Of a stretch of 64,000 nt of DNA, positions 5,295 through 63,689 are shown in pieces. Both the position numbers and the translations under genes were made by a program. The stretch comes from Escherichia coli (lineage in GTDB: Bacteria > Pseudomonadota > Gammaproteobacteria > Enterobacterales > Enterobacteriaceae). Under the pieces are notes generated by a model, which was not told the DNA's origin, ran no database searches, and saw nothing but the letters and a program-made list of their open reading frames with translations. Location of the stretch: NCBI RefSeq assembly GCF_013122565.1, contig NZ_CP053258.1; one strand, given 5' to 3'. Every line of letters starts with the position of its first letter. The first letter of the stretch is position 1.

Positions 5295-7037
5295 ATGATA
5301 AAACCGACGTTTTTACGCCGGGTGGCCATTGCTGCTCTGCTCTCAGGAAGTTGTTTTAGCGCCGCCGCCGCGCCTCCTCCGCCACCTGTTTCTTATGGCG
5401 TGGAGGAAGATGTCTTCCATCCGGTACGCGCGAAACAGGGGATGGTGGCGTCTGTCGATGCCACTGCCACCCAAGTGGGGGTAGATATTCTAAAGGAGGG
5501 CGGGAATGCCGTTGATGCTGCCGTGGCAGTGGGCTACGCGCTGGCGGTAACGCATCCGCAAGCAGGGAATCTGGGCGGTGGTGGTTTTATGCTGATCCGC
5601 TCGAAAAATGGCAACACCACGGCTATCGATTTCCGCGAAATGGCACCCGCCAAAGCGACCCGCGATATGTTCCTCGATGATCAGGGCAACCCGGACAGCA
5701 AAAAATCACTCACTTCGCATCTGGCTTCCGGCACGCCCGGTACGGTAGCAGGTTTCTCGCTGGCGTTGGATAAATACGGCACCATGCCGTTGAACAAAGT
5801 GGTGCAACCGGCGTTTAAACTGGCACGCGATGGTTTTATCGTTAACGACGCGCTGGCTGACGATCTCAAAACCTACGGCAGTGAAGTGCTGCCGAATCAC
5901 GAAAACAGCAAGGCTATCTTCTGGAAAGAGGGCGAACCGCTGAAAAAGGGCGACACGCTGGTGCAGGCGAACCTGGCAAAGAGCCTGGAGATGATTGCTG
6001 AAAACGGCCCGGACGAATTCTATAAAGGCACGATTGCGGAACAGATCGCCCAGGAGATGCAGAAAAACGGTGGCTTGATCACTAGAGAAGATTTAGCGGC
6101 CTATAAAGCGGTGGAACGTACACCGATTAGCGGCGAATATCGCGGGTATCAGGTTTACTCGATGCCACCGCCATCTTCCGGTGGGATTCATATCGTGCAG
6201 ATCCTCAATATCCTGGAAAACTTCGATATGAAGAAATACGGCTTTGGCAGTGCCGACGCGATGCAAATCATGGCAGAAGCCGAGAAATATGCCTACGCCG
6301 ACCGCTCGGAATATCTTGGCGACCCGGATTTTGTCAAAGTCCCGTGGCAGGCGTTGACCAATAAAGCCTATGCCAAATCTATTGCCGATCAAATAGATAT
6401 CAATAAAGCGAAGCCATCCAGCGAAATTCGTCCTGGCAAGCTTGCGCCTTATGAGAGTAATCAAACTACCCATTACTCAGTGGTGGATAAAGACGGTAAC
6501 GCGGTGGCGGTGACCTATACGCTGAACACCACCTTCGGTACGGGCATTGTCGCGGGCGAGAGCGGTATTCTGCTTAATAACCAGATGGATGATTTCTCCG
6601 CCAAACCGGGCGTACCGAACGTTTACGGGCTGGTGGGCGGTGATGCCAACGCCGTCGGGCCGAATAAACGCCCGCTGTCATCGATGTCACCAACCATTGT
6701 GGTGAAAGACGGTAAAACCTGGTTAGTGACTGGTAGCCCAGGCGGTAGCCGGATCATCACTACCGTGCTGCAAATGGTGGTGAATAGCATCGATTATGGT
6801 ATGAATGTCGCCGAAGCGACCAATGCACCGCGTTTCCACCATCAATGGTTGCCGGACGAGCTGCGTGTCGAAAAAGGGTTTAGCCCGGATACGCTCAAGC
6901 TGCTGGAAGCAAAAGGTCAGAAAGTGGCGCTGAAAGAGGCGATGGGCAGTACACAAAGCATTATGGTTGGGCCGGACGGTGAGTTGTACGGCGCATCCGA
7001 CCCGCGCTCGGTGGATGATTTAACGGCGGGTTATTAA
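5295..7037 (+). CDS. ggt: gamma-glutamyltranspeptidase
   Basis: 580-aa protein from MIKPTFLRR with signal peptide; GGT family; autoprocessing Thr in the QTTHYSVVD region. Confidence 0.93.
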   Translation: MIKPTFLRRVAIAALLSGSCFSAAAAPPPPPVSYGVEEDVFHPVRAKQGMVASVDATATQVGVDILKEGGNAVDAAVAVGYALAVTHPQAGNLGGGGFMLIRSKNGNTTAIDFREMAPAKATRDMFLDDQGNPDSKKSLTSHLASGTPGTVAGFSLALDKYGTMPLNKVVQPAFKLARDGFIVNDALADDLKTYGSEVLPNHENSKAIFWKEGEPLKKGDTLVQANLAKSLEMIAENGPDEFYKGTIAEQIAQEMQKNGGLITREDLAAYKAVERTPISGEYRGYQVYSMPPPSSGGIHIVQILNILENFDMKKYGFGSADAMQIMAEAEKYAYADRSEYLGDPDFVKVPWQALTNKAYAKSIADQIDINKAKPSSEIRPGKLAPYESNQTTHYSVVDKDGNAVAVTYTLNTTFGTGIVAGESGILLNNQMDDFSAKPGVPNVYGLVGGDANAVGPNKRPLSSMSPTIVVKDGKTWLVTGSPGGSRIITTVLQMVVNSIDYGMNVAEATNAPRFHHQWLPDELRVEKGFSPDTLKLLEAKGQKVALKEAMGSTQSIMVGPDGELYGASDPRSVDDLTAGY

Positions 7038-7097: not shown

Positions 7098-7586
7098 CTA
7101 TTTCACCCGCGCCATATAATACGCATCGACATATTCACCATTACGAAAAGCGTAATTTTTGCCGGTGCCTTCTATGTGAAATCCCAATTTTTTATAGACT
7201 GTGATTGCCGGGGCGTTATCCGCAAACACCGTCAACTCAATACGATCTATCCGTAACCAGTTGTCGCACATTTCAATCAATTCGCGGATCAGGGCGCTGG
7301 CGATGCCGCGGTTGTGCCAGCGGGAGTCAACACAGATACCAAAAGTTGCAACATGACTGCGGCGTGGGCCTTGATAAGCCTCAATGAAAAGATGACCCAC
7401 TACGATGCCATCAATGCAGGCAACCAGTTGTTTAAAACCTTGGCGATCTTTCAATCTTTCTGGCCACCAGCCTTCCGAAGGATGAGGTAGTTGTAGCGTG
7501 TTGCAATACACCTCCGGCTGGGCGTGAATCTGCCTGATGGCCTCGTAATCGCGCGTTTCAGCATGGCGTATCACTATCTCACTCAT
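7098..7586 (-). CDS. yhhY: GNAT-family N-acetyltransferase YhhY
   Basis: 162-aa protein from MSEIVIRHAETRDYEAI; the ORF-track N-terminal extension (to 7664) was rejected. Confidence 0.85.
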   Translation of the reverse strand: MSEIVIRHAETRDYEAIRQIHAQPEVYCNTLQLPHPSEGWWPERLKDRQGFKQLVACIDGIVVGHLFIEAYQGPRRSHVATFGICVDSRWHNRGIASALIRELIEMCDNWLRIDRIELTVFADNAPAITVYKKLGFHIEGTGKNYAFRNGEYVDAYYMARVK

Positions 7587-7683
7587 TCCTTTGTCCTCTT
7601 TGGGGTAAATGTCCCTTTCAACATCATTGACTTTCAAATGCGAGTCAAATGCATTTTTTTGCAAAAAGTGTTGGACAAGTGCG

Positions 7684-7703
7684 AATGAGAATGATTATTA
7701 TTG
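7684..7703 (+). promoter_or_regulatory. Fur box in the ryhB promoter
   Basis: aatgagaatgattattattg resembles the Fur consensus GATAATGATAATCATTATC and lies immediately 5' of ryhB. Confidence 0.7.
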
Positions 7704-7707
7704 TCTC

Positions 7708-7797
7708 GCGATCAGGAAGACCCTCGCGGAGAACCTGAAAGCACGACATTGCTCACATTGCTTCCAGTATTACTTAGCCAGCCGGGTGCTGGCTTTT
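7708..7797 (+). ncRNA. ryhB: small regulatory RNA RyhB (iron-sparing, Fur-repressed, Hfq-dependent)
   Basis: Sequence gcgatcaggaagaccctcgcggagaacctgaaagcacgacattgctcacattgcttccagtattacttagccagccgggtgctggc followed by a T-run is recognised as RyhB; it lies in the yhhY-yhhX intergenic region with an intrinsic terminator hairpin at its 3' end. Confidence 0.9.
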
Positions 7798-7918
7798 TTT
7801 TTGATCTTTCGTTCTCAATTTATCCACGGGAGTGCTTGTGTTCGTTATGCGCACTCCAGTAGGAACCACGTCCGCTTTGCGCTAAGGTGTAAATAACCAC
7901 CTTAAAAAGGACGAAATC

Positions 7919-8956
7919 ATGGTCATCAACTGCGCCTTTATTGGCTTCGGCAAAAGCACCACCCGTTACCATCTGCCGTATGTACTTAACCGCAAGGATA
8001 GCTGGCATGTCGCGCATATTTTTCGCCGCCATGCAAAGCCGGAAGAACAAGCTCCCATTTACTCTCATATCCATTTCACCAGCGATCTCGACGAAGTGCT
8101 AAACGATCCCGATGTTAAGCTGGTTGTTGTCTGCACCCATGCGGACAGCCACTTCGAGTACGCGAAGCGCGCGCTGGAAGCCGGGAAAAATGTGCTGGTC
8201 GAAAAACCGTTCACCCCGACGCTTGCCCAGGCGAAAGAGCTGTTTGCTCTGGCGAAAAGTAAAGGGCTGACCGTCACGCCATATCAGAATCGTCGCTTTG
8301 ATTCCTGCTTCCTGACGGCGAAAAAAGCGATTGAAAGCGGCAAGCTGGGAGAGATTGTCGAAGTGGAAAGCCATTTTGACTATTACCGCCCGGTGGCAGA
8401 AACCAAACCTGGGCTGCCGCAGGATGGCGCGTTCTATGGCCTTGGTGTGCATACGATGGACCAGATTATTTCTCTGTTCGGTCGCCCGGATCACGTCGCT
8501 TATGACATCCGCAGCCTGCGTAATAAAGCCAATCCTGACGACACCTTTGAAGCGCAGCTGTTTTATGGCGACCTGAAAGCCATCGTCAAAACCAGCCATC
8601 TGGTGAAAATCGATTATCCGAAATTTATCGTTCACGGTAAGAAAGGTTCGTTTATTAAATACGGTATCGACCAGCAGGAAACCAGCCTGAAGGCTAATAT
8701 TATGCCGGGCGAACCGGGATTCGCAGCGGATGATTCGGTCGGTGTGCTGGAGTATGTCAATGACGAGGGTGTGACGGTCAGAGAAGAGATGAAGCCAGAG
8801 ATGGGCGATTACGGGCGCGTTTATGATGCGTTGTATCAAACCATCACCAACGGTGCGCCAAATTACGTCAAGGAATCTGAAGTTCTTACCAATCTGGAAA
8901 TCCTTGAACGCGGATTCGAGCAAGCCTCTCCCTCCACAGTGACTCTCGCGAAGTAA
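7919..8956 (+). CDS. yhhX: Gfo/Idh/MocA-family NAD(P)-dependent oxidoreductase
   Basis: 345 aa; N-terminal Rossmann motif AFIGFGKS; conserved position. Confidence 0.85.
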   Translation: MVINCAFIGFGKSTTRYHLPYVLNRKDSWHVAHIFRRHAKPEEQAPIYSHIHFTSDLDEVLNDPDVKLVVVCTHADSHFEYAKRALEAGKNVLVEKPFTPTLAQAKELFALAKSKGLTVTPYQNRRFDSCFLTAKKAIESGKLGEIVEVESHFDYYRPVAETKPGLPQDGAFYGLGVHTMDQIISLFGRPDHVAYDIRSLRNKANPDDTFEAQLFYGDLKAIVKTSHLVKIDYPKFIVHGKKGSFIKYGIDQQETSLKANIMPGEPGFAADDSVGVLEYVNDEGVTVREEMKPEMGDYGRVYDALYQTITNGAPNYVKESEVLTNLEILERGFEQASPSTVTLAK

Positions 8957-13003: not shown

Positions 13004-13015
13004 TTACTGCGACAA

Positions 13016-13050
13016 ATTACTGCGAGCTTGCTCGCAGTAATTCATTTCTC
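13016..13050 (+). terminator. perfect palindromic hairpin after gntU
   Basis: aattactgcgagc-tt-gctcgcagtaatt followed by a T-rich tract; half-site also directly repeated at 13002-13012. Confidence 0.6.
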
Positions 13051-13142
13051 TTTTCTCCTCTCTTCATCTTTTTGATCTCTCTCGCAAATTTACCTGCTAA
13101 TAATCCGTTCTAATCACTGCCTAAAGATCGCAGGAGATAAAG

Positions 13143-15239
13143 ATGGAAAAGCACGGAGCTGAATTGCTTTTACAGCGGATGTTAGGCAATACCACCGCTA
13201 CTTTCAGGGAAGGTCAATGGGAAGCCATGGACGCGGTGGTGAACCGACGGCGAAAACTGCTGGTTGTCCAACGCACTGGCTGGGGGAAAAGCGCCGTGTA
13301 CTTCATCTCCAGTAAAATCTTCCGCGATCGCGGCGCTGGCCCGACAATTATCATCTCTCCTTTGCTTGCCCTGATGCGTAACCAGGTTGCCGCCGCTGAA
13401 CGGTTAGGTATTACGGCTGAAACGTTGAATTCTACAAACAGGGAAGAATGGCAGCGCATTAGCGATAAGTTGCTGCAAGGTGCGGTCGATTGCTTGCTGG
13501 TTTCCCCGGAACGTTTGGCAAACCAGGACTTTATCGAAACGGTTTTATATCCTATAGCCGATCGTATTGGTTTGCTTGTGGTCGACGAGGCGCACTGCAT
13601 CTCTGATTGGGGCCACGATTTTCGCCCGGATTACCGACGTATATTAGATATTTTGCGCCAACTGCCTGCGAATACCCCTGTTCTGGGTACAACCGCGACA
13701 GCGAATAACCGTGTCGTTGAGGATATCCGTCAGCAATTGGGTGACATTGTGATTCAGCGTGGAACGCTGGCTCGCGAAAGTTTGGCGCTTGATGCCTTAG
13801 TCTTAGGTGAACAGTCATCCCGTCTGGCATGGTTAGCAACGGTTATCCCTCAGTTTTCCAAATCGGGAATTGTTTATACCCTGACTACTCGCGATGCCGA
13901 ACTTGTCGCCGAGTGGTTAAGGACAAATGGTATCAGTGCATTTGCTTACTACAGCGGCGTGACTTGTGAAGGCGCGGAAGATTCTAATACTGCCAGGGAA
14001 TATCTGGAGCAGGCGCTGCTGGCAAATAAAATCAAAGTGCTGGTCGCGACGACGGCATTAGGTATGGGGTTTGATAAACCTGATTTAGGTTTCGTCATTC
14101 ATTATCAAATGCCGGGGTCTATTGTCGGTTACTACCAACAGGTAGGGCGTGCCGGGCGTGCTATAGATTCCGCTGTTGGCATATTGCTTTGTGGTGGTGA
14201 AGACCGCGCTATTCATAAATTCTTCCGTGAAAGCGCCTTTCCTGCGGAGGCGCAAATTCATGAAATACTCAACGTACTTAGCGAGAATGACGGTCTTACC
14301 CTACGAGGCATTGAACAACGGACGAATCTCCGTTATGGGCAAATAGAAAAAGCACTGAAATTATTGGTAGCTGAAAATCCATCGCCTGTGGTGTATACCG
14401 AGAAATTATGGCGCAGAACTATCGTCAGTTTCTCTCCTGACCATGAACGAATTAACCATTTGATGAATCAGAGAAAAAGTGAGCTGGCAGACGTTGAAAG
14501 CTATGTCACGACCAAGGAGTGCAAAATGCAATTTCTGCGCCGCGCACTCGATGAGCCAAGTGCCGAACGTTGTGGTAAATGTAGCAGTTGTCTTCAGCAT
14601 CCGTTGTTGTCGCCCGATATTGATAGCGGCTTACTCCATGCGGCAAATTTATTTATTAAACACGCTGACCTGCCATTAAATCTCAATAAACAGGTAGCAT
14701 CTGGGGCTTTTACGCAATACGGATTTAAAGGGAACTTGCCTGCGGGTTTACAAGGATCTACGGGGCGAGTCCTTTCTCGTTGGGGAGATTCCGGGTGGGG
14801 AAAGCAGGTAGCACAGGAGAAAAAAACGGGGCGATTCAGTGATGAGCTGGTGGAGGCATGTGCGGAAATGGTTCGCCAACGCTGGAATCCGCATCCTGAA
14901 CCAACCTGGGTATGCTGCGTTCCTTCATTAAGGCACCTCGACCTGGTTCCTAATTTTGCCCGGCGACTGGCGGCGAAACTTGGCTTACCTTTTATTGATG
15001 CCATTGAAAAAGTCGTGGACAATCCACCGCAGAAAATGCAGCAAAACCGTTTTCACCAGTGTCAAAATCTCGACGGGGCGTTTGTGATTACCCCTCCTTT
15101 GATGCCAGGTCCGGCGTTGCTGGTTGACGATATCGTGGATTCTGCATGGACGCTGACAGTTCTGACAGCACTGTTACGCCAGGCAGGTTGCCCGACGGTT
15201 TATCCTCTTGCCCTTGCTTCTACCTCGGTAAAAAATTGA
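13143..15239 (+). CDS. RecQ-family superfamily-2 DNA helicase fused to a C-terminal ComF/GntX-like phosphoribosyltransferase-like domain
   Basis: 698 aa. Walker A QRTGWGKS (aa 43-50); DEAH box VVDEAHCISDWGHDFRPDY (nt 13584-13595); motif III TATA; motif VI QQVGRAGR; Cys cluster ERCGKCSSC; C-terminal LLVDDIVDSAWTLTVLTALL resembles the PRPP-binding loop of PRTases (compare GntX VIVDDVVTTGSTVAEIAQLL in this window). Confidence 0.75.
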   Translation: MEKHGAELLLQRMLGNTTATFREGQWEAMDAVVNRRRKLLVVQRTGWGKSAVYFISSKIFRDRGAGPTIIISPLLALMRNQVAAAERLGITAETLNSTNREEWQRISDKLLQGAVDCLLVSPERLANQDFIETVLYPIADRIGLLVVDEAHCISDWGHDFRPDYRRILDILRQLPANTPVLGTTATANNRVVEDIRQQLGDIVIQRGTLARESLALDALVLGEQSSRLAWLATVIPQFSKSGIVYTLTTRDAELVAEWLRTNGISAFAYYSGVTCEGAEDSNTAREYLEQALLANKIKVLVATTALGMGFDKPDLGFVIHYQMPGSIVGYYQQVGRAGRAIDSAVGILLCGGEDRAIHKFFRESAFPAEAQIHEILNVLSENDGLTLRGIEQRTNLRYGQIEKALKLLVAENPSPVVYTEKLWRRTIVSFSPDHERINHLMNQRKSELADVESYVTTKECKMQFLRRALDEPSAERCGKCSSCLQHPLLSPDIDSGLLHAANLFIKHADLPLNLNKQVASGAFTQYGFKGNLPAGLQGSTGRVLSRWGDSGWGKQVAQEKKTGRFSDELVEACAEMVRQRWNPHPEPTWVCCVPSLRHLDLVPNFARRLAAKLGLPFIDAIEKVVDNPPQKMQQNRFHQCQNLDGAFVITPPLMPGPALLVDDIVDSAWTLTVLTALLRQAGCPTVYPLALASTSVKN

Positions 15240-16441
15240 TGAATCTTTCAGCCAATGCACAAGCAACTCTCCTGCTAACCAGCGATTTTTCTCGCGCGGC
15301 GGCGAGTGAGTATAACCCTCTTAGTAATAGTGAATGGGGGAAGTTTGCATTATGGCTGAAGCACCAACGTATCAGTCCCGCCGATCTTCTGGTGCCGCAA
15401 CCGCAAGAGAAACTTACAGGCTGGAGCGATCCGCGTATTTCTCAGGAGCGTATTCTTGGCTTGCTGGCGCGTGGTCATAGTCTGGCGTTGGCGGTAGATA
15501 AGTGGCAACGCGCCGGTTTATGGATCTTAACCCGCGGAGATGCCGATTATCCCGTTCGCTTGAAAAACCGATTGCGAACGGATGCACCTCCCGTTTTATT
15601 TGGCTGTGGGAATAAAGCATTACTGCAAGCGGAAGGTATGGCGATTGTTGGCTCGCGAGATGCTCCGACTGACGATTTGCGCTATACCCAACAACTGGCC
15701 GCGAAACTGGCCCAACAGGGGATTTGCGTTATCTCTGGTGGTGCGCGAGGTATTGATGAATGTGCAATGGCGTCGGCACTGGAGGCCGGGGGAACTGCCG
15801 TTGGCGTATTAGCTGATAGCTTGTTAAAAACGAGCACGTTAGTGAAATGGCGTGAAGGGCTTATAGCAGGCAACCTGGTGTTGATTTCGCCGTTTTACCC
15901 AGAGGTACGTTTCACTGTCGGCAATGCGATGGCGCGGAATAAATATATTTATTGCCTTGCTGAAAGCGCAATGGTTGTACGTGCGGGAATGTCCGGTGGA
16001 ACGATAACCGGGGCGATGGAAGCATTAAAACATCAGTGGCTGCCTGTGCAGGTTAAACCAAATCAGGATATGCAATCAGCCAATTCACGATTAGTAGAAA
16101 ATGGGGCGTCATGGAGTACTGAACAGGCTGAGAATGTGACGTTCAGACTGCCAGACGTTACTGGGCTGATTTATGACAAAGCACTCCGTAACGCTCAACC
16201 AGAACTGTTTTCGCTGCATGAAGATGACGCAAATTACGCAGTAATGCCCGCGCATACGCCTGTCGATTTTTATCAACTCTTTGTGGCGGAACTGGCGATC
16301 CTTGCAAAGGAATCGATAAGTATTGAAAGGCTGGCGTCTTGTACTGGTTTAACCATCGAACAAATTCGTGTGTGGCTGAACCGCGCAGAAGAAGAGGGAA
16401 GGGTTATTCGATTGGGCGAAGGTCATTATCAGTTCAGGTAA
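15239..16441 (+). CDS. DprA/Smf-like (SLOG Rossmann-fold) DNA-processing protein with a C-terminal winged-helix-like tail
   Basis: 400 aa from MNLSANAQ; ATG overlaps the helicase TGA (TGATG). DprA core motifs MAIVGSRDAP...GICVISGGARGIDECAMASALEAGG (nt ~15737-15757); C-terminal SIERLASCTGLTIEQIRVWLNRAEEEGRVIRL looks like a winged helix. Confidence 0.75.
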   Translation: MNLSANAQATLLLTSDFSRAAASEYNPLSNSEWGKFALWLKHQRISPADLLVPQPQEKLTGWSDPRISQERILGLLARGHSLALAVDKWQRAGLWILTRGDADYPVRLKNRLRTDAPPVLFGCGNKALLQAEGMAIVGSRDAPTDDLRYTQQLAAKLAQQGICVISGGARGIDECAMASALEAGGTAVGVLADSLLKTSTLVKWREGLIAGNLVLISPFYPEVRFTVGNAMARNKYIYCLAESAMVVRAGMSGGTITGAMEALKHQWLPVQVKPNQDMQSANSRLVENGASWSTEQAENVTFRLPDVTGLIYDKALRNAQPELFSLHEDDANYAVMPAHTPVDFYQLFVAELAILAKESISIERLASCTGLTIEQIRVWLNRAEEEGRVIRLGEGHYQFR

Positions 16442-16444
16442 TAA

Positions 16445-16481
16445 AACAGGTGCCGCGTCTGGTTGTGTGCAGCACCTGTTT
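16445..16481. terminator. bidirectional hairpin between the convergent DprA-like gene and yhgN
   Basis: Inverted repeat aacaggtgc...gcacctgtt lying between the two convergent stop codons. Confidence 0.55.
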
Positions 16482-16486
16482 GAACC

Positions 16487-28132: not shown

Positions 28133-29650
28133 ATGGAAAGAATAATGCAAAACAGAAAATGGATTTTGACCTCGCTGGTAATGACTTTTTTCGGCATCCC
28201 CATACTGACGCAATTTTTGGCAGCGGTTGTTGCTATGCTGGGGGGCGGGCTTGCCGCTATTCTTGAGGTTTGCAATTTACTCTTTACGCCAGCAATTTAT
28301 CTTCTACTCAACGTCTTTATGCTGACTCTGGGGGCGATAATAATATTTTTCTCTGGTCGCGTGTGGGCGGGCGATAGTGCACCAGAAAAAAAAGAAATAG
28401 CCGTCTGGCGACAATGTCTTTTTTTAGTACCTGCTTTATTCACCCTGGTTGGCTGGATAATCACGCTACATCTGGCAGATTATCAATTTCGCCAGATGGG
28501 AGACGGTTGGTTGGCAAACCTTATGCTTCCCTGGTTGGGCGTTTTTTTAGTCTCATTAGTGGGTGGTGAGTACTGGTGGATAGTCATTATACCCGTTGGC
28601 GCGCATATCAGTTTTTCGCTGGGGTACGGTTGGCCGACCAGACATCTTTTAACGGGCACGTCCGGGTTACGTTGCCGTAATTCCCTCTTGTTTATCCTTC
28701 TCATGCTTGGTTTTGTCGCCGGTTACCAGGCTTATTTATATAAACAGCTTAATCCCGGCGTCGGTGTGCGTGAAAATATTGATACCTGGGCCTGGCGACC
28801 CGATAAACTCAATAATCAACTGACACCACTGCGTGGTAAACCGCAAATTCAGTTCACGCAAAACTGGCCGCGACTCGATGGTGCTACGGCGGCGTACCCA
28901 ATTTATGCCTCTGCATTTTATGCTTTAAGCGTTATACCGGAAGATTTTCACGCCAGGAAATATCTGGAGAACTCTCGTACCCCCGATGCGTATAACAGGA
29001 TTGTTAAAGGTGATGCCGATATTATTTTTGTGGCGCAGCCCTCCGGTGGGCAGAAAAAACGCGCTGAGGAATCGGGCGTCACTTTGCTGTACACGCCTTT
29101 TGCCCGTGAAGCGTTTGTTTTCATCGTCAATGCAGATAACCCGGTTAATTCCCTGACCGAACAACAAGTGCGTGACATCTTCAGTGGCGCAATTACCAAC
29201 TGGCGCACGGTTGGCGGTAACGATCAGGAGATCCAGACCTGGCAACGCCCGGAAGACTCAGGTAGCCAGACGGTGATGCAGGCGCAGGTCATGAAAAATG
29301 TACGTATGATCTCGCCGCAGGAGACCGAAGTGGCTGAAATGATGGGAGGGATGATTAAAGTTGTTGCCGAATACCGTAATACAAACAACTCAATAGGCTA
29401 CACCTTCCGCTATTACGCAACGCAAATGAATACCGATAAGAATATCAAATTGTTAGCGATTAACGGTATTGCACCGACTGCGGAAAACATCCGTAACGGC
29501 AAATATCCCTATATCGTCGATGCCTTTATGGTAACGCGGGAAAATATGACGTCAGAAACGCAAAAACTGGTGGAATGGTTTTTAACGCCGCAGGGGCAAA
29601 GCCTGGTGGAAGATGTGGGTTATGTGCCGATGTATCCAACAATGAAATAA
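28133..29650 (+). CDS. membrane-embedded protein with C-terminal PstS-like periplasmic binding domain
   Basis: 505 aa. N-terminal ~200 aa contains about 5-6 hydrophobic helices; C-terminal ~290 aa resembles PstS-family binding proteins (GATAAYPIYASAFY, WQRPEDSGSQTVMQ, VGYVPMYP). Start could be 28145. Confidence 0.55.
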   Translation: MERIMQNRKWILTSLVMTFFGIPILTQFLAAVVAMLGGGLAAILEVCNLLFTPAIYLLLNVFMLTLGAIIIFFSGRVWAGDSAPEKKEIAVWRQCLFLVPALFTLVGWIITLHLADYQFRQMGDGWLANLMLPWLGVFLVSLVGGEYWWIVIIPVGAHISFSLGYGWPTRHLLTGTSGLRCRNSLLFILLMLGFVAGYQAYLYKQLNPGVGVRENIDTWAWRPDKLNNQLTPLRGKPQIQFTQNWPRLDGATAAYPIYASAFYALSVIPEDFHARKYLENSRTPDAYNRIVKGDADIIFVAQPSGGQKKRAEESGVTLLYTPFAREAFVFIVNADNPVNSLTEQQVRDIFSGAITNWRTVGGNDQEIQTWQRPEDSGSQTVMQAQVMKNVRMISPQETEVAEMMGGMIKVVAEYRNTNNSIGYTFRYYATQMNTDKNIKLLAINGIAPTAENIRNGKYPYIVDAFMVTRENMTSETQKLVEWFLTPQGQSLVEDVGYVPMYPTMK

Positions 29651-29675
29651 CCCTTGAGAGAAGGGAATCAGGGCG

Positions 29676-30677
29676 ATGAATAAATTCACAGAAGTTTTAC
29701 TGCTAGGTGCGGTATTACTGGCGGGATACGCCGACCGGGAAGCATACTATAACAGCGTCAGGGAAGAAGAGAGTCATGGACTGACTTCTCTGCGGGGACA
29801 GCCTGAATTACGTTACAGCGAAGATTGGTCAAGATGGCCCAGAGTGTACGGCGCTACCGCCTTATACCCCCTGTATGCTTCTGCATATTATGAATTAGTA
29901 CCGGAGCCGAAAGATGCGGATCAAACCTCACTGGCCTGGCAGGCGTATGGTCTGCAGCAAACCCGAACAGCTGAAGCCTACGATAATCTGATTAAAGGTA
30001 CTGCGACTGTTATTTTTGTCGCGCAACCTTCTGAAGGGCAGAAAAAACGTGCAGAAGAAGCGGGAGTTAAGCTGAAATATACCGCGTTTGCCCGCGAAGC
30101 CTTTGTCTTTATCGTTGATATCAAAAACCCGGTGAATTCACTCAGCGAACAGCAGGTCAAAGACATTTTTAGCGGTAAAGTGAGTCGCTGGAATAAAGTC
30201 GGTGGCAGCGACGAACGCATAAAAGTGTGGCAGCGCCCGGAAGATTCCGGTAGCCAGACGGTAATGCAAGAGTTAGTTATGCAAGGCACACCGATGTTAC
30301 CCGCTAAAAAATCAACCATGGTTGATCTTATGGGTGGGTTAATTACCGAAGTCGCCGACTATCAAAACACGCCATCTTCAATCGGTTATACCTTTTATTA
30401 TTATGTTACGCGTATGAATAGTAATATGCTCAAAATGCGCAAGCAGATCAAATTATTAGCCATCAACGGCGTCGCCCCCACTGAGGAAAATATTCGCAAC
30501 GGATCTTATCCCTATATTGTGGACGCCTATATGGTGACCCGTGAAAATCCAGCACCGGAAACGCAAAAGTTTGTCGACTGTTTTTTAAGCCCGCAGGGGC
30601 AACAGTTGGTGCAGGATGTGGGGTATGTGCCTTTATACCCGATTACGAACTCTCGTAAAAAGGATTTTGAAAAATGA
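29676..30677 (+). CDS. secreted PstS-like periplasmic binding-domain protein, paralog of the preceding gene
   Basis: 333 aa with N-terminal signal peptide; shares GATALYPLYASAYY, WQRPEDSGSQTVMQ and VGYVPLYP with the upstream gene. Confidence 0.55.
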   Translation: MNKFTEVLLLGAVLLAGYADREAYYNSVREEESHGLTSLRGQPELRYSEDWSRWPRVYGATALYPLYASAYYELVPEPKDADQTSLAWQAYGLQQTRTAEAYDNLIKGTATVIFVAQPSEGQKKRAEEAGVKLKYTAFAREAFVFIVDIKNPVNSLSEQQVKDIFSGKVSRWNKVGGSDERIKVWQRPEDSGSQTVMQELVMQGTPMLPAKKSTMVDLMGGLITEVADYQNTPSSIGYTFYYYVTRMNSNMLKMRKQIKLLAINGVAPTEENIRNGSYPYIVDAYMVTRENPAPETQKFVDCFLSPQGQQLVQDVGYVPLYPITNSRKKDFEK

Positions 30678-30952
30678 AAATATCAATAAGTAAACTTAGT
30701 GAATTTAAAAAGGTTTCTTTATTATTTCTGGCCTACTCATTATTTATTACTGCTGGGTGTGTCAGTCATCAGAATGTTACTGAAAGTATAAAAGAAAAAC
30801 AGAGTTATAATATTACAAGGATACAGGGGAAACCCGTATTACAAATTCCCGAAAAGGAAGCAACGTGGTTGACCGTGGCGAGGGCCACTACGTTATATCC
30901 ATTGTACTCTTCGGCATATCACATGGTTATAGTTGAACCCAGTGGACACTGA
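30674..30952 (+). pseudogene. truncated third PstS-like paralog with lipoprotein signal peptide
   Basis: 92 aa; lipobox ITAGC, then only the first ~45 aa of the binding domain (IQGKPVLQIPE...ATTLYPLYSSAYH) before a stop; ATGA overlap with the upstream gene; very AT-rich DNA follows. Confidence 0.5.
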
Positions 30953-31027
30953 TTCTGATAATATAGAAAAATCAATGATTAACGTCTCTGTTAATATGGG
31001 TATTACTCAGTAAAGGTAAGAAAAATT

Positions 31028-31219
31028 ATGCTGAAACGATTATTTTTTATTATTCTTATTTTATCCGCAACGGGATGTTCTATTGTTGACACCTCTCTGG
31101 AGAAAAAAGACTTACTTAATTTATCTGTATATGAAAATAATATTGTTGATAATTCAGTGTTAATAAGAGTTGTAGCCAGTCAAAAGGTAAAAGAGACCTG
31201 GTATATATGCAACGAATAA
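31028..31219 (+). CDS. small putative lipoprotein (hypothetical)
   Basis: 63 aa; signal peptide with lipobox LSATGC; in the AT-rich block. Confidence 0.35.
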   Translation: MLKRLFFIILILSATGCSIVDTSLEKKDLLNLSVYENNIVDNSVLIRVVASQKVKETWYICNE

Positions 31220-31671
31220 TAGAAAAAGCTTTAACGGTTTTGCTTATGATTTACGCCGGATCAGCAGCTGCCGAAGGTAAAGTGAACGATTTATGCCACA
31301 TAGGTGATCGTGTAGATAAACTTGAGATTACAAATTATCCTCATGATTACGAGTCGCTAGTTGCAGTTGATGAGAAGCGATTGAATGAAATTTATAAATA
31401 CAAGGTTGAAATTACCTATCTTGATAATAAAGAAAGTAAAAAAATTGTTGAACTATTACAAATGGATTATGCGGAACAAGAAGAAAATGTTACTGATGTG
31501 AGGTGGCGGGTGAATATCACTTCATATGGAAATAAAAAATGTGATATCTATTTTGATGGTTTTGGCTTATGTGGAAAAATTAATGGTGAGAATGTCTGTT
31601 TCAGGCATAACGAAATGATACGGTGGATTGAGTCTCATATTTCTGTATTTCTACATAGTGTTAACGAATGA
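31207..31671 (+). CDS. small secreted hypothetical protein
   Basis: 154 aa; signal peptide ending AGSAAAEG; AT-rich codon usage. Confidence 0.4.
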   Translation: MQRIIEKALTVLLMIYAGSAAAEGKVNDLCHIGDRVDKLEITNYPHDYESLVAVDEKRLNEIYKYKVEITYLDNKESKKIVELLQMDYAEQEENVTDVRWRVNITSYGNKKCDIYFDGFGLCGKINGENVCFRHNEMIRWIESHISVFLHSVNE

Positions 31672-31690
31672 ATGTGAAAAAGGAATTTAT

Positions 31691-32143
31691 ATGCAATTTT
31701 TATTTAAAAATAATAAATTATTTTTTATAAGGATAAGGTTAGTTTCGGTTATTTTATTTTTATTTATGAGTACTTCCTTGTATGCTAAAAATCCATGTGA
31801 AGGACTTAAAGGTGATTTACCTGCGGCGCAGTTAATTCCACTTAAGAAAAATATTGCCAGGCAGTTGAATTCTGAAATGGAACAGGTAGTAGAAGTTAAT
31901 AAAGTTGAAATATTATCTTTCGATACCTTGCAGGAATGGTCAATTGTTGGTGTCGCTACCGGAGTATCAGATGATGCATTGTTAATTTATAAAGGGAATA
32001 TCACTAAAACTGATTATGTGGCATTATTTGGAGGCGCTGCAAGTATTAACGATGACATGATCCAATGGATAAACCAGAAAGCGCCGGGAATTCCAGATAA
32101 GTTGGCACAATGTTTTGCGTGGGGAGCTGTATATCGTGATTGA
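31691..32143 (+). CDS. small secreted hypothetical protein
   Basis: 150 aa from MQFLFKNNK with aagga Shine-Dalgarno 8 nt upstream; signal peptide ending LYAKNP. Confidence 0.4.
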   Translation: MQFLFKNNKLFFIRIRLVSVILFLFMSTSLYAKNPCEGLKGDLPAAQLIPLKKNIARQLNSEMEQVVEVNKVEILSFDTLQEWSIVGVATGVSDDALLIYKGNITKTDYVALFGGAASINDDMIQWINQKAPGIPDKLAQCFAWGAVYRD

Positions 32144-32161
32144 TAATAAAAGGACAACCAA

Positions 32162-32869
32162 ATGGAATTAGTTGATACGTTATTTGCAAGCCTCGCCGGT
32201 ACTGATCCTTTCACAGGCGTGGATATTACGATTGCCAAATGCGAATCGGCATATTGGGCCGAGGGCATTGTTCAGCTGCTCATTAACCAGGCCCTGGATG
32301 AAGGGGAAAAGTTCGTCGGTGCTGCCGGTCTTGAGGGATTGCTTCGATATGATGTCACATTAAATATTGGCTTAACGTCCAGCAATGTATGGCCGGGGTT
32401 TTCCCTCGATACCGCCACCATTGGCCGTCTTTGTGCCTGTGGTGCTGACTTTGGATTTGACCCTTATATCAGTGATGTACCAGATGTTCAATGTGACCTG
32501 AACACGACAAATGACTTCACCGTTCAATTTACGGCGATGCTCAACCCGGAGCGGGCGATCATAGCAAAGCGCCCGCTTAAAAAATGTGACTCCTGGATTG
32601 AGGATGTCTATATCTTTCAGGTCTTTAAAGAAGCCTGGAAGTTTCATAACGATAACAGCTTACGAGGATTTCGCGATAAGCAGGCTGAACTGAAACTCTA
32701 CGCGCGTCATTACTCAGTGGAAAATTGTATAGAGGAAAGCTGCCGTGACTGTAATAGTTGTATTCGGCCCAGCTTTTCCCTTTCTCGTAGTGCCATTATT
32801 CGCCTGAACGCGGCGAATGCTCGTTTTGTTTATCAACCGTTTACACGCGACCAGCGGGCGAGGGGGTAA
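32162..32869 (+). CDS. hypothetical protein, Cys-rich C-terminal part
   Basis: 235-aa ORF with no recognisable family; stop lies 2 nt before the next start. Confidence 0.4.
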   Translation: MELVDTLFASLAGTDPFTGVDITIAKCESAYWAEGIVQLLINQALDEGEKFVGAAGLEGLLRYDVTLNIGLTSSNVWPGFSLDTATIGRLCACGADFGFDPYISDVPDVQCDLNTTNDFTVQFTAMLNPERAIIAKRPLKKCDSWIEDVYIFQVFKEAWKFHNDNSLRGFRDKQAELKLYARHYSVENCIEESCRDCNSCIRPSFSLSRSAIIRLNAANARFVYQPFTRDQRARG

Positions 32870-32871
32870 TT

Positions 32872-33660
32872 ATGCAACCCAGTCCCGCCATGCAGAATAT
32901 TATTGCCCATGCCTGGGCGATATTTCATTTTTATCCTGCACCGCAACAGTTCAATATTTGCGTTCCTTGCTGTGTCAGCGAAGAGGTCGCGCAGGCGTTA
33001 CGGCAAACACCGTTACGTCAATTAACCGTTGAAATGATATATGAATGGAACAGTAGCGCGAGGCCTTTTGAACAACAGAATGATGAAATCCGTTACCTCC
33101 TTCCGAGACTGCTGGAATTACTGGCTCACGGTCATTGTCCTGCCATAAATGAAGAGTTATGCCTGAAACGTATTGGCGCTATTTCCCTGGACACCTGGCA
33201 GCCGGAGGAGCGTGATGTACTTACCGATTTTTCCCGCCAGTATATTCGCGATTTATTACTTACCCCGACATTGACCGATCTTGAATCTGCCCTCGTGATG
33301 TTTCATTTTGCCGGACTATCTATAACGGCTTTATTAGATGAGGCGCTGAACACGCCTGGCTATTGGGCTATCGCTTCGCTGGCCTATTTTTTGTATATCA
33401 AGCGTCCAAACGGCGAATTACGTAACGCGTTTATCTCACGCAAGCCGGATGGTGAAGTGATAACGCAGCAAATTAACGCCTGGATTGCGCAATCATGTCA
33501 CGCGCTGGCAGAACGCGCCGCGGCGGCGATTGAATGCTCGCCATCCCTTCCCGGCGGTGGACACACGGAGTACAGTGTTGACCTGAGCTACCTGATTGAC
33601 GAAAGCCTTTGTGCGCTTGTTGATTATCAATTGCTCTGGACGATGGACCGTAATGAATAA
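32872..33660 (+). CDS. hypothetical protein, paralog A of a tandem pair
   Basis: 262 aa beginning MQPSPAMQ; shares N-terminal Cys motif, NDEIRYLLPRL and other blocks with the next gene. Confidence 0.45.
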   Translation: MQPSPAMQNIIAHAWAIFHFYPAPQQFNICVPCCVSEEVAQALRQTPLRQLTVEMIYEWNSSARPFEQQNDEIRYLLPRLLELLAHGHCPAINEELCLKRIGAISLDTWQPEERDVLTDFSRQYIRDLLLTPTLTDLESALVMFHFAGLSITALLDEALNTPGYWAIASLAYFLYIKRPNGELRNAFISRKPDGEVITQQINAWIAQSCHALAERAAAAIECSPSLPGGGHTEYSVDLSYLIDESLCALVDYQLLWTMDRNE

Positions 33661-33671
33661 GGAGATTCACA

Positions 33672-34448
33672 ATGCAACCCAGCCCCGCCATGCAGGCATT
33701 AATTGAGCAGATTTATCATATTTTTCGTCGTTATCCGGTGCCGTCGAGATTTCATGTTTGTTGTCCTTACTGCTTTAGCGAAGAACAACAACAAGCCTTA
33801 AAAGGGGTTTCACTGCGTGCCATACCTTTCCCTTTATTACATGCCTGGGGAACAAGTATTGGCCCTAACCCACAAAATGATAATGAGATTCGCTATTTAT
33901 TACCCAGATTGTTTGACTTTATTGCCCAAAGGCAATTTCCAGGCATTTATGAAGGCTGCTGTTTACAGAGAATAGCAGAAGCAGATAACCAGAACTGGCG
34001 AGCGGATGAACTACAAATAATTAGCGATTTCGCCTATTTATATATGCAGGATTGGGTGTCGGTTAAGGAAGTTGTGGAGCTGGAAATAATATTAGAAATG
34101 TTTTATCGCGGTGGTATAAAGATTGAACCCTTACTTGACGCTATTATGTCCATTTCCGGTTACTGGCCGACGGCGTCAATGGCATGTTTGCTCTGGCGTA
34201 ACAGTAAAGAATACGTCGAAAATAGCGAGTTTGAGCAGAGTGATGATGATAAAACCATTACCACCCAAATCAATACCTGGGCTAGAAATAATCATCCTTT
34301 GCTGAAAGAACGCGCGCGGCAAGCGATTGAGAACCCGCTAAAACAGCCCGAACAGGGCACACGATATCAGGTCTGGGAAGACGACTGGATGATTGATGAG
34401 TGTTTGTGCGCAATGTATGACGCATCATCCGAATCATCAGGACAATAA
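33672..34448 (+). CDS. hypothetical protein, paralog B of a tandem pair
   Basis: 258 aa beginning MQPSPAMQ; paralogous to 32872..33660. Confidence 0.45.
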   Translation: MQPSPAMQALIEQIYHIFRRYPVPSRFHVCCPYCFSEEQQQALKGVSLRAIPFPLLHAWGTSIGPNPQNDNEIRYLLPRLFDFIAQRQFPGIYEGCCLQRIAEADNQNWRADELQIISDFAYLYMQDWVSVKEVVELEIILEMFYRGGIKIEPLLDAIMSISGYWPTASMACLLWRNSKEYVENSEFEQSDDDKTITTQINTWARNNHPLLKERARQAIENPLKQPEQGTRYQVWEDDWMIDECLCAMYDASSESSGQ

Positions 34449-34450
34449 AG

Positions 34451-34633
34451 ATGAATAAAATCAAACTTTATATTCCTCCGCTATTTCTCGGCTTTGTTAT
34501 TGTGCCGCTGTTGGTGTGGCCGACGGTGGTTGCGCTGGCGGCTTTTGGTATCACGCTGAGTTTTCTGGGGGAGTTACTGTTCTTAATCCCGATCATAGTC
34601 CGACGTATGTCACTTCTGGAAGCACAACTTTGA
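34451..34633 (+). CDS. small hydrophobic membrane protein, possibly the N-terminal part of a stop-interrupted gene
   Basis: 60 aa with two predicted transmembrane helices; same reading frame as the following ORF, separated by a single TGA. Confidence 0.3.
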   Translation: MNKIKLYIPPLFLGFVIVPLLVWPTVVALAAFGITLSFLGELLFLIPIIVRRMSLLEAQL

Positions 34634-34666
34634 TTATCGGCTGAATATACGCTTGTTTTCTGTGCA

Positions 34667-35050
34667 ATGGTGGGCGTTGGTTGGCAATTCTCTCGCAGAA
34701 CGTCACCTGAATTAAAAAACAGACTGCATTTTTGGCTGGTCTTTACACCGGTTTATTTCTGGTTGCTTCTGTGGAATATCATTTTCTATATCGGGCCAGC
34801 GAAAAATGCATTGCTGGAAAATATCCGCAATTTCTTTTTAACAATTGTCTGGTTACCGCTGAATTTTTCGCCACTTTGGTCCCAACCGTGGACTGACTTT
34901 GTCGGTCCAATAAGCGCACAGCTTGGTTTTGCGTTGGGATATTATTGCCAGTGGCGTAGCAAAAATAGAAGCCAGGGGCAGAAGTGGGGTGAGTGGGGAA
35001 CGTGTCTTAGTTTTGTTACGTTGGGTATGATGGCATGGGTTTTGCGGTAA
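34667..35050 (+). CDS. hydrophobic membrane protein, possibly the C-terminal part of a stop-interrupted gene
   Basis: 127 aa with predicted transmembrane helices; in frame with 34451..34633. Confidence 0.3.
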   Translation: MVGVGWQFSRRTSPELKNRLHFWLVFTPVYFWLLLWNIIFYIGPAKNALLENIRNFFLTIVWLPLNFSPLWSQPWTDFVGPISAQLGFALGYYCQWRSKNRSQGQKWGEWGTCLSFVTLGMMAWVLR

Positions 35051-35100
35051 TTTCCTGAATCAAAAAGCAGGCCAGATTGTTGACGAAGTGCGCTTTGTTC

Positions 35101-35199
35101 ATGCCGGATGCGGCGTGAACGCCTTATTCGGCCTACAAAATCATGCAAATTCAATATATTGCATAAACCACGTAGGCTTGATAAGCGTAGCGCATCAGG
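35101..35199. repeat. BIME: two inverted REP units
   Basis: gccggatgcggcgtgaacgccttattcggcctac and gtaggcttgataagcgtagcgcatcagg in inverted orientation. Confidence 0.7.
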
Positions 35200-35263
35200 A
35201 AATTTTGTGTTTGTCATCAGTCTCAGGCCAGATTGAAATCTGACCTGATCACCTTACGTTAAT

Positions 35264-41928: not shown

Positions 41929-42960
<1,032 letters not shown>

Positions 42961-43009
42961 AACCCCTGCCGGATCAGACTCATCAGTGTGACTATCCGGT
43001 AGAGGTAAA

Positions 43010-43495
43010 TTACTCCAGAGTAATGGGATACAGTAAGGTAAGTGACTGGAATGGTGAAGGTACAAAGGCATACTTCAGATAGAAATTGCGTACTGAATCG
43101 TCTAAAGCATGAACAATGAGCGCACGAACCCCTACCTGTTGAGCTATGGACATTGTGCGATAGACTGCATCTTTCAACAATGCGACGCCCAGCCCTTTAC
43201 CTGCCCAGGCTTGATCAATTGCCAGTCTGCCTAATACGACAACAGGCAACGATTCGGGAGCATTACGTCGCATGGCTCCAGGGGTCAAATTACGTTGAAT
43301 ACTGCCTGTAGAAAGGCAGTAATAGCCGATTACCTGACGGGTATTGGCAATACAGATAACGTAAACACGAGACAGACCGGAGCTGTGATTTTTTAACTCT
43401 TTCTTTTTTAGCCATTCATTCATCCCGTGATCGGAACAGCAAAAGTCAGCCAGATTATGTTCAGACGTTAGGGGAGTAGGAGGCGTTATTCCCAT
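43010..43495 (-). CDS. GNAT-family acetyltransferase toxin of a type II toxin-antitoxin pair (TacT/KacT/ItaT-like)
   Basis: 161 aa; GNAT acetyl-CoA motif VLGRLAIDQAWAGKGLGVALL; 10-nt overlap with the upstream DUF1778-type gene. Confidence 0.7.
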   Translation of the reverse strand: MGITPPTPLTSEHNLADFCCSDHGMNEWLKKKELKNHSSGLSRVYVICIANTRQVIGYYCLSTGSIQRNLTPGAMRRNAPESLPVVVLGRLAIDQAWAGKGLGVALLKDAVYRTMSIAQQVGVRALIVHALDDSVRNFYLKYAFVPSPFQSLTLLYPITLE

Positions 43496-43764
43496 GGCGA
43501 TTTACGATTCATCAACGCGTTAATTTTGGCCTGACGCTCAGCAGTGATGGGGGCGTCCAGGGCAGCCAGAAATGCATCGTATTGCTCGTCATCAACGATG
43601 AATAGTCGTTGATCTAATAAGATGTCTTGCGCTTCACGGCATGCGGCATCCAGCATAAAATCAGTGCGCGATTTTGCGACCAGATTCGCTGCCATATCAA
43701 TCAGGTCACGCTGTGAGGCTTTCGCCCTGATATTGATTGGCGCTTCTTTGCTTTCCGGTTTCAT
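43486..43764 (-). CDS. DUF1778-type (ribbon-helix-helix) antitoxin partner of the GNAT toxin
   Basis: 92 aa; N-terminal PINIRAKASQRDLIDMAANL typical of TacA/KacA-like antitoxins; first in the operon. Confidence 0.7.
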   Translation of the reverse strand: MKPESKEAPINIRAKASQRDLIDMAANLVAKSRTDFMLDAACREAQDILLDQRLFIVDDEQYDAFLAALDAPITAERQAKINALMNRKSPWE

Positions 43765-43830
43765 ATTGATGAGCCTGTAGTGCGATTTTATATACAGTAT
43801 AAAGAGTGTACATAAAAACGCTATACAAAC

Positions 43831-59391: not shown

Positions 59392-59501
59392 AGGTGCCTA
59401 CTTGTTTCTCATTAACTGGATAACTACCTCATGGGGCGTTTGACAGCGACATGAGACCAGATGATTTGCCAACGAAGGAGAGATTAAATAATCAACAGTA
59501 C

Positions 59502-59520
59502 AATGATAATGAGAATGGTT
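59502..59520 (-). promoter_or_regulatory. putative Fur box in the feoABC promoter region
   Basis: aatgataatgagaatggtt contains GATAAT-type hexamer repeats about 110 nt upstream of feoA. Confidence 0.5.
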
Positions 59521-59727
59521 TCTATCAGCAATACTTAAAATGTGTGCGAATGTTGGTTTGAATAATAATCTGACTCAATGTTGATGTGGCTCAAGGTTAT
59601 ATCGCAGCGAAAATATAATTCGAATAGCGAATTACCAGGACTGGTTAATGTTTAATTAAGGTTTCATTTGTTAATGAAGTGATAAGTATTAACGGAATAT
59701 ATTATGAGTTTGGTTGTGGAATAAAAA

Positions 59728-62742: not shown

Positions 62743-62969
62743 CTCGTTGATTCCCTTTGTCTGTTTGATAATGCGCACATTGGGTATAACGTGATCATAT
62801 CAACAGAATCAATAATGTTTCGCCGAATAAATTGTATACTTAAGCTGCTGTTTAATATGCTTTGTAACAATTTAGGCTGAAATTCATACCAGATTTAGCT
62901 GGTGACGAACGTGAGCTTTTTTAAGAATACACGCTTACAAATTGTTGCGAACCTTTGGGAGTACAAACA

Positions 62970-63689
62970 ATGCAAGAGAACTACAAGATTCTGGTGGTCG
63001 ATGACGACATGCGCCTGCGCGCGCTGCTGGAGCGTTATCTCACCGAACAAGGCTTCCAGGTTCGAAGCGTCGCTAATGCAGAACAGATGGATCGCCTGCT
63101 GACTCGCGAATCTTTCCATCTTATGGTACTGGATTTGATGTTACCTGGTGAAGATGGCTTGTCGATTTGCCGACGTCTTCGTAGCCAGAGCAACCCGATG
63201 CCGATCATTATGGTGACGGCGAAAGGGGAAGAAGTGGACCGTATCGTGGGCCTGGAGATTGGCGCTGACGACTACATTCCAAAACCGTTTAACCCGCGTG
63301 AACTGCTGGCCCGCATTCGTGCTGTGCTGCGTCGTCAGGCGAACGAACTGCCGGGCGCGCCGTCACAGGAAGAGGCGGTAATTGCTTTCGGTAAGTTCAA
63401 ACTTAACCTCGGGACGCGCGAAATGTTCCGCGAAGATGAGCCGATGCCGCTCACCAGCGGTGAGTTTGCGGTATTGAAGGCACTGGTCAGCCATCCACGT
63501 GAGCCGCTCTCCCGCGATAAGCTGATGAACCTTGCCCGTGGCCGTGAATATTCCGCAATGGAACGCTCCATCGACGTGCAGATTTCACGTCTGCGTCGCA
63601 TGGTGGAAGAAGATCCAGCACATCCGCGTTACATTCAGACCGTTTGGGGTCTGGGCTACGTCTTTGTACCGGACGGCTCTAAAGCATGA
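62970..63689 (+). CDS. ompR: osmolarity two-component response regulator OmpR
   Basis: 239 aa from MQENYKILVVDDDMRL; receiver domain plus winged-helix. Confidence 0.95.
   Translation: MQENYKILVVDDDMRLRALLERYLTEQGFQVRSVANAEQMDRLLTRESFHLMVLDLMLPGEDGLSICRRLRSQSNPMPIIMVTAKGEEVDRIVGLEIGADDYIPKPFNPRELLARIRAVLRRQANELPGAPSQEEAVIAFGKFKLNLGTREMFREDEPMPLTSGEFAVLKALVSHPREPLSRDKLMNLARGREYSAMERSIDVQISRLRRMVEEDPAHPRYIQTVWGLGYVFVPDGSKA

Follow-up and report, generated by a model that had tools for sequence, protein, structure and literature searches.

The window analysed here, a stretch of 64,000 nucleotides of Escherichia coli DNA, carries a short RNA gene in the intergenic region separating yhhY from yhhX. 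It is virtually certain that ryhB, as found on the E. coli chromosome, occupies the segment 7708-7802 (+), preceded at 7672-7705 by a promoter and a Fur operator of its own. The orientation of the window is reversed relative to the chromosome of strain K-12 MG1655, in which it runs from approximately ugp/ggt (3.59 Mb) down to envZ (3.5356 Mb). The features of the locus are as follows.

7098-7586 (-): yhhY, GNAT N-acetyltransferase, upstream and divergently oriented (ORF list; annotation of K-12 and E2865)
7672-7677 (+): -35 hexamer of ryhB, TGGACA (promoter scan; identical to K-12)
7681-7705 (strand not applicable): Fur operator, two overlapping 19-bp Fur-box matches placed 6 bp apart (7687-7705, 16/19; 7681-7699, 14/19)
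7696-7701 (+): -10 hexamer of ryhB, TATTAT (promoter scan; ends 6 nt before +1 at 7708)
7708-7802 (+): ryhB gene (100% identity to K-12 b4451; RF00057, 83.1 bits; the 90-nt form occupies 7708-7797)
7708-7742 (+): 5' stem-loop, RyhB nt 1-35 (UCAGG/CCUGA pairing closed by GC/GC; RNAalifold consensus of 22 yhhX-linked orthologues)
7741-7768 (+): conserved single-stranded core (seed), nt 34-61, GCACGACAUUGCUCACAUUGCUUCCAGU (exact match; invariant in the Rfam consensus, where it is printed in upper case)
7768-7775 (+): A/U-rich stretch UAUUACUU, internal part of a putative Hfq-binding module (sequence reading; directly 5' of the terminator hairpin)
7776-7802 (+): Rho-independent terminator, hairpin 7776-7794 plus U tail (terminator scan: 7 bp, 5 of them G-C, 5-nt loop)
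7919-8956 (+): yhhX, oxidoreductase, the downstream neighbour (ORF list and annotation; 97.2% identity to K-12)

The initial annotation had recognised a RyhB sequence with its terminator between yhhY and yhhX, and had named a covariance-model search as the check, with the absence of a RyhB match as the outcome that would count against it. The match is present. The Rfam 15 scan of the 64 kb placed RF00057 (RyhB) at 7737-7801 (+) with 83.1 bits (E = 3.6e-14), the gathering score being 55; the alignment covered positions 1-67 of the 67-position model and contained no non-canonical pairs. Alignment to the E. coli gene, the second check proposed, was equally clear, as the curated K-12 gene and its promoter are identical to those of the window. 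Identity with K-12 MG1655 extends over every position of 7588-7921 (334 bases, the whole yhhY-yhhX intergenic region; 100%). The K-12 ncRNA gene ryhB (b4451, also called SraI), located at 3580922..3581016 and 95 nt long, corresponds to 7708-7802 (+) of the window. Its 90-nt form, 7708-7797, has the sequence GCGATCAGGAAGACCCTCGCGGAGAACCTGAAAGCACGACATTGCTCACATTGCTTCCAGTATTACTTAGCCAGCCGGGTGCTGGCTTTT, and reading from 7708 onward gives GCGATCAGGAAGACCCTCGCGGAGAACCTGAAAGCACGACATTGCTCACATTGCTTCCAGTATTACTTAGCCAGCCGGGTGCTGGCTTTTTTTTT. The interval originally assigned to the gene ended at 7797, the 3' end of this commonly quoted 90-nt form, and started at 7684, i.e. inside the Fur operator and 24 nt upstream of +1.

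The position of +1 (7708) was obtained by transfer of the K-12 ryhB annotation. Apart from the pair of hexamers TGGACA/TATTAT (10/12 matches, 18-nt spacer), neither strand of the segment 7400-8000 yielded a sigma-70-like site. The Fur operator spans the -10 hexamer and ends 3 nt before +1. In the Fur scan, each 19-mer of the window was scored against the 19-bp consensus GATAATGATAATCATTATC. The box at 7687-7705 (GAGAATGATTATTATTGTC), which scored 16/19 in the reverse and 15/19 in the forward orientation, was the best match in the 64 kb, and a score of 16/19 was reached by none of 30 shuffles. Two matches of at least 15/19 were observed in the window, where 0.13 were expected. The initial annotation had placed a Fur box immediately upstream of the RNA, and this is borne out by the top match of the window. 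According to Chen et al. (PMC2189734), the Fur cluster of K-12 ryhB, at -15, scores 25.2 bits and comprises 4 sites over 31 bp; the same study reports a positive gel shift of this site with Fur protein.

The same scan detected two 13/19 Fur matches placed 6 bp apart (59499 and 59505; together 59499-59523) upstream of feoA, the first gene of the feoABC operon on the - strand. PMC2189734 lists paired Fur sites with the same 6-bp offset (3538059/3538065), probably those of feoA, and reports in vivo binding of Fur there. The pair at 59499-59523 served, informally, to check that the scan detects real Fur sites.

Turning to the RNA itself, the single-sequence minimum free energy structure of RyhB was no better than those of shuffled sequences (z = -0.67 and +0.20). 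Values near zero are typical of short Hfq-dependent sRNAs with a long single-stranded seed. Since z-scores of single sequences are uninformative for a short sRNA whose seed is unstructured, the covariance model and an alignment of homologues were used instead. RNAalifold applied to the 22 yhhX-linked orthologues returned a plausible structure of three hairpins with 0 compensatory changes; the 5' stem shows no covariation in this set because its pairs are invariant and the sequences too similar. Covariation was found only for the terminator, in a set of 77 distinct homologues that is wider than the 22 yhhX-linked orthologues. In these 77 sequences the terminator stem was 99% paired, and 4 of its 7 pairs displayed compensatory changes (39 cells in total; AU/GC/UA, AU/CG/GC, GC/AU and CG/UA). 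None of 500 shuffles reached this covariation score, and sliding the 3' partner reduced the proportion of paired cells to 23-55%.

The terminator hairpin (7776-7794) is followed directly by T8, and the U tail of the transcript comprises 9 U (7794-7802). Morita et al. (PMC4509938) gave the same 9-U tail for ryhB, together with a hairpin of -10.7 kcal/mol and a terminator readthrough of about 20%, and described the Hfq-binding module as an internal U-rich sequence, the terminator hairpin and a long 3' poly-U tail. The predicted Hfq module of the window RNA has all of these parts: the hairpin, the 9 U and, upstream of them, UAUUACUU.

Within the core, RyhB nt 38-46 (GACAUUGCU, 7745-7753) are a perfect complement of positions -4 to +5 of K-12 sodB (AGCAAUGUC), a segment that spans the start codon; the sodB sequence is that of K-12, the gene lying outside this window. 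Unrestricted RNAduplex pairing of full-length RyhB with the sodB leader was over-extended (-35 kcal/mol) and was equalled by 22 of 500 shuffles, and the evidence concerning sodB is limited to the exact 9-nt complement across the start codon. PMC4666370 makes no mention of RyhB targets encoded in the window (nfuA, feoAB, glpD, yhhX).

Of 5426 complete E. coli genomes, 5424 carry the 131-nt segment comprising the promoter and the gene, always on the chromosome, and at an identity of at least 99% in 5413 of them. The two remaining genomes gave no match to the ryhB locus, and one genome carried three copies. In 30 of 30 sampled RefSeq E. coli records the ryhB match was accompanied by no annotated feature, whereas an ncRNA is annotated only in the curated K-12 MG1655 record. 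The core 21-mer CATTGCTCACATTGCTTCCAG (7747-7767) occurs only once in the window. Beyond E. coli, at least 120 loci contain it without a mismatch; they belong to Enterobacterales, Vibrionales and Aeromonadales, and many genomes have two. Among the matches listed, a Fur box scoring 14/19 or better was present in the 120 nt preceding the core in 107 of 117 homologous loci; in the controls, 120-nt segments drawn at random from these loci, the figure was 22 of 1150 (1.9%).

Among the matches listed, the RyhB core adjoins yhhX and/or yhhY in 19 loci of other Enterobacteriaceae, distributed over Citrobacter, Enterobacter, Klebsiella, Lelliottia, Kluyvera, Leclercia, Pluralibacter, Pseudescherichia and E. 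albertii. This shared neighbourhood across genera identifies the copy in the window as the yhhX-linked orthologue and not a paralogue of the RyhB-2 type. Every feature defining RyhB that can be tested in silico was found at the locus, i.e. the covariance-model score, the core, the Fur box, the terminator/Hfq module, the synteny and the complementarity to sodB. The locus is an already known gene, neither a new member of the family nor a variant of it.

The constancy of ryhB stands against the state of the neighbouring DNA. Over its 489 nt, the yhhY allele of the window shows 90 mismatches to that of K-12 (81.6% nucleotide identity), the last of them at 7572, whereas the 332 bp of the neighbouring ryhB intergenic region match K-12 completely (100%). 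Divergence or recombination thus stops sharply, no more than about 15 bp from the start of yhhY. K-12 carries 3.45 kb of DNA, comprising yhhZ, yrhA::IS1, yrhD and yrhB, in the interval that separates yhhY from ggt. This yhhZ-yrhB segment is absent from the window, where ggt ends at 7037 and yhhY at 7098; in strain E2865 it is annotated as encoding an Hcp1-family T6SS effector together with YrhA, YrhD and YrhB. The direct ggt-yhhY junction was present in only 1217 of 5426 E. coli genomes, and no more than 6 records matched the allele of the window at 99% or more. The statement of the initial annotation that ryhB is conserved despite the turnover of neighbouring islands holds, as promoter and gene are at least 99% identical in 5413 of the 5424 genomes while the yhhZ-yrhA-yrhD-yrhB segment is missing here, and as yhhY has diverged next to an unchanged intergenic region.

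Three insertions or islands relative to K-12 were noted elsewhere in the window. The first, of 3.5 kb (13004-16486), lies between gntU and yhgN and encodes a RecQ-like DEAD-box helicase (13143-15239) and a DprA/SLOG-like protein (15146-16441). PADLOC assigned the former to the PsyrT model (1062.9 bits) and the latter to PsyrA (664.3 bits), i.e. to the PsyrTA pair, a toxin-antitoxin-type anti-phage defence system. The second is a 6.6-kb island (28368-34985) between glgP and glpD, where K-12 has only the yzgL remnant. It comprises genes for two PstS-like PBP_like_2 proteins (28133-29650 and 29676-30677) and five consecutive ORFs on the same strand (31207-34448; 154, 171, 235, 262 and 258 aa), for which no Pfam or PADLOC family and no meaningful NCBIfam match were found. 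The last two of these ORFs are paralogues, both starting with MQPSPAMQ, and between 31 and 32 kb the GC content is 31.5%. Coverage of the segment 30700-34990 reached 80% in no complete E. coli genome; the best coverage was 78% (at 92.5% identity), and most genomes reached 38% at about 87%. The third, an insertion of approximately 0.9 kb (42938-43826), is located between rtcA and malT and contains an ORF of 161 aa (43010-43495, -) with weak matches to GNAT acetyltransferases.

RyhB had initially been described as the one clear RNA gene of the window, a statement that is approximately correct. No tRNA or tmRNA genes were found in the window, nor any other strong Rfam match at E <= 1, and at the gathering threshold the Rfam 15 scan of all 64 kb gave two matches in total (RyhB and ES036). 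The description has to be qualified by this second, marginal match and by an antisense RNA. ES036 (CssrF) was matched at 35137-35179 with 39.4 bits against a gathering score of 37.6. Together with sub-threshold naRNA4 matches, it sits in a BIME-type repeat downstream of glpD (35097-35200), composed of the inverted REP units GCCGGATGCGGCGTGAACGCCTTATTCGGCCTAC ... GTAGGCTTGATAAGCGTAGCGCATCAGG around an A/T-rich centre. Since it lies between inverted REP units of BIME type, the match is weak evidence for a gene, and the site is probably a repeat element and not a dedicated sRNA gene; a literature search on ES036/CssrF returned unrelated matches only. The K-12 antisense RNA AsompR (b4842, 3536438-3536775) maps to approximately 62779-63116 (-), overlapping the 5' end of ompR; it was placed by coordinate transfer within a block of 97.4% identity, and no Rfam family matched this region.

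The alternative interpretation of the locus that fares best concerns yhhX. The Fur-regulated promoter at 7672-7705 might serve mainly yhhX, with RyhB being the terminator-attenuated 5' leader of a ryhB-yhhX mRNA. Several observations point in this direction. The promoter scan of 7400-8000 found no other sigma-70-like promoter between ryhB and yhhX, and the Fur site was first assigned to yhhX by in vivo selection of Fur sites, as discussed in PMC2189734. The ryhB terminator is passed by about 20% of polymerases (PMC4509938). Moreover, iron limitation raises the yhhX transcript, an effect that needs a region lost in the ryhB deletion, the ryhB promoter included (PMC8896160), and the spacer downstream of ryhB is strongly structured. 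Both of these reports suggest, without proving it, that ryhB and yhhX are co-transcribed (PMC4509938, PMC8896160). On the other hand, ryhB ends in a strong terminator that shows covariation among homologues. Among the matches listed, approximately 100 loci lacking an adjoining yhhX retain the core, Fur box and terminator, and in other genera ryhB and yhhX are separated by anything between about 30 nt and over 800 nt, REP elements or an additional gene having been inserted. In addition, the readthrough products do not bind Hfq (PMC4509938). We consider it unlikely that the promoter belongs mainly to yhhX; readthrough into yhhX represents at most an extra output of the ryhB promoter and not an alternative to the sRNA.

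A related proposal assigns a function to the spacer itself (7803-7918; 116 nt, E. coli-specific), which could act as the leader of a Fur/iron-controlled ryhB-yhhX readthrough transcript by masking the Shine-Dalgarno sequence of yhhX. The segment 7803-7815 (GAUCUUUCGUUCU) is predicted to pair with the yhhX Shine-Dalgarno region (7905-7917), and the fold of 7803-7925 (-38 kcal/mol, z = -3.47), which includes an internal hairpin GGGAGUGC...GCACUCC, was equalled by 1 of 200 shuffles. In the 243-nt readthrough transcript the long-range spacer helix is present in the centroid structure and absent from the minimum free energy structure. Conservation of the spacer outside E. coli was not found, REP elements or extra genes occupying its place in E. 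albertii, Citrobacter and Enterobacter. Such a leader appears improbable. Were it real, the output of yhhX would be set jointly by Fur derepression, by the efficiency of the terminator, which increases under stress, and by refolding of the leader.

The two other alternatives can be given next to no credence. Open reading frames that overlap the gene do exist mechanically (7609-7896, 95 aa; 7701-7862, 53 aa; 7649-7738, 29 aa), and one of them might be thought to encode a small protein. Among orthologues, these frames are broken by indels of 1 and 2 nt (e.g. TATTAC-T vs TATTACTT, and terminator loops of variable length). Just beyond the T-run, even E. albertii has an unrelated sequence, and hence no frame is preserved. 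The 95-nt RNA contains no ATG, conservation is centred on the non-coding core and on the hairpin arms, where changes are compensatory, and the curated K-12 record has an ncRNA and no CDS here. The frame-breaking indels and the lack of an ATG in the RNA rule out a small protein. The overlapping ORFs are spurious, and the gene is, as the initial annotation remarked, invisible to the ORF track, if only trivially so. The idea that the gene is a decayed or silent copy (a pseudo-sRNA) without function in this strain is dismissed because promoter, operator, RNA and terminator do not deviate at a single position from those of the functional gene in K-12, the copy being, moreover, the only one of the core in the window and near-perfectly identical throughout the species.

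With the locus taken as ryhB, its mode of action would be that described for the K-12 gene. When iron is sufficient, Fe2+-Fur would occupy the operator overlapping the -10 hexamer and thereby block transcription of ryhB. Under iron scarcity, Fur would be released and an RNA of about 90-95 nt produced, with its 3' end at the hairpin and 9-U terminator. Hfq would then bind the 3' module (the A/U-rich stretch, hairpin and poly-U tail), and the single-stranded core would pair with target mRNAs (sodB, sdhCDAB, acnB and others) at their translation-initiation regions, the targets encoding iron-using proteins that are not essential. The pairing is expected to block translation and to recruit RNase E, with the result that iron is spared. 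In K-12, repression of ryhB by Fe2+-Fur and, on iron depletion, the Hfq-assisted pairing of RyhB with about 20 mRNAs of iron-using proteins, the block of their translation and the recruitment of RNase E are well documented (PMC4150767). An iron-starvation-induced, Hfq-dependent transcript of about 90 nt that causes decay of its targets is thus established for the identical K-12 sequence (PMC4150767). On the strength of this literature, expression, Fur repression, Hfq binding and target decay would be expected in the present strain as well.

RyhB is a central regulator of the iron-sparing response of E. coli, yet it was missed by a track based on ORFs. The importance of the locus lies in this annotation point and in its use as a positive control for the scan; it reveals no new biology.

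Among known systems, the arrangement of ryhB and yhhX resembles that of SgrS and setA, where an Hfq-dependent sRNA with a long poly-U terminator is likewise followed by a gene on the same strand; readthrough has been measured for the sgrS and ryhB terminators alike (PMC4509938). The two systems differ in that sequence and targets are unrelated, the regulator is SgrR in one case and Fur in the other, and co-transcription of ryhB with yhhX is only suggested. Functional analogy extends to other iron-repressed sRNAs. PrrF of Pseudomonas lowers the mRNAs of iron-containing proteins and thus serves iron sparing. Like IsrR of Staphylococcus, it belongs to another RNA family that lacks the RyhB core and is not relevant to membership in RF00057. 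IsrR, also an iron-repressed sRNA, follows the same iron-sparing logic (PMC9410917).

The paralogues are closer. RyhB-2/IsrE of Salmonella and Klebsiella, as well as the two RyhB copies of Yersinia, Photorhabdus and others, have in common with the RNA of the window the core of 21-28 nt, an upstream Fur box and a Rho-independent terminator. They differ from it in the 5' hairpin (e.g. ACCGAATAGTTGAG...CTCAGGTATTCGGT), in the terminator stem (GCCCGC/GCGGGC) and in their location away from yhhX/yhhY, and the Klebsiella ryhB-2 has been set apart from the yhhX/yhhY-linked orthologue (PMC3415461). The closest relative of all is ryhB of K-12 (RF00057), with which promoter, Fur operator, RNA and terminator are 100% identical and which shares the yhhY/yhhX context and the sodB-complementary segment; the locus itself shows no differences, whereas its wider surroundings do, through the absence of the yhhZ-yrhB segment and the divergent allele of yhhY.
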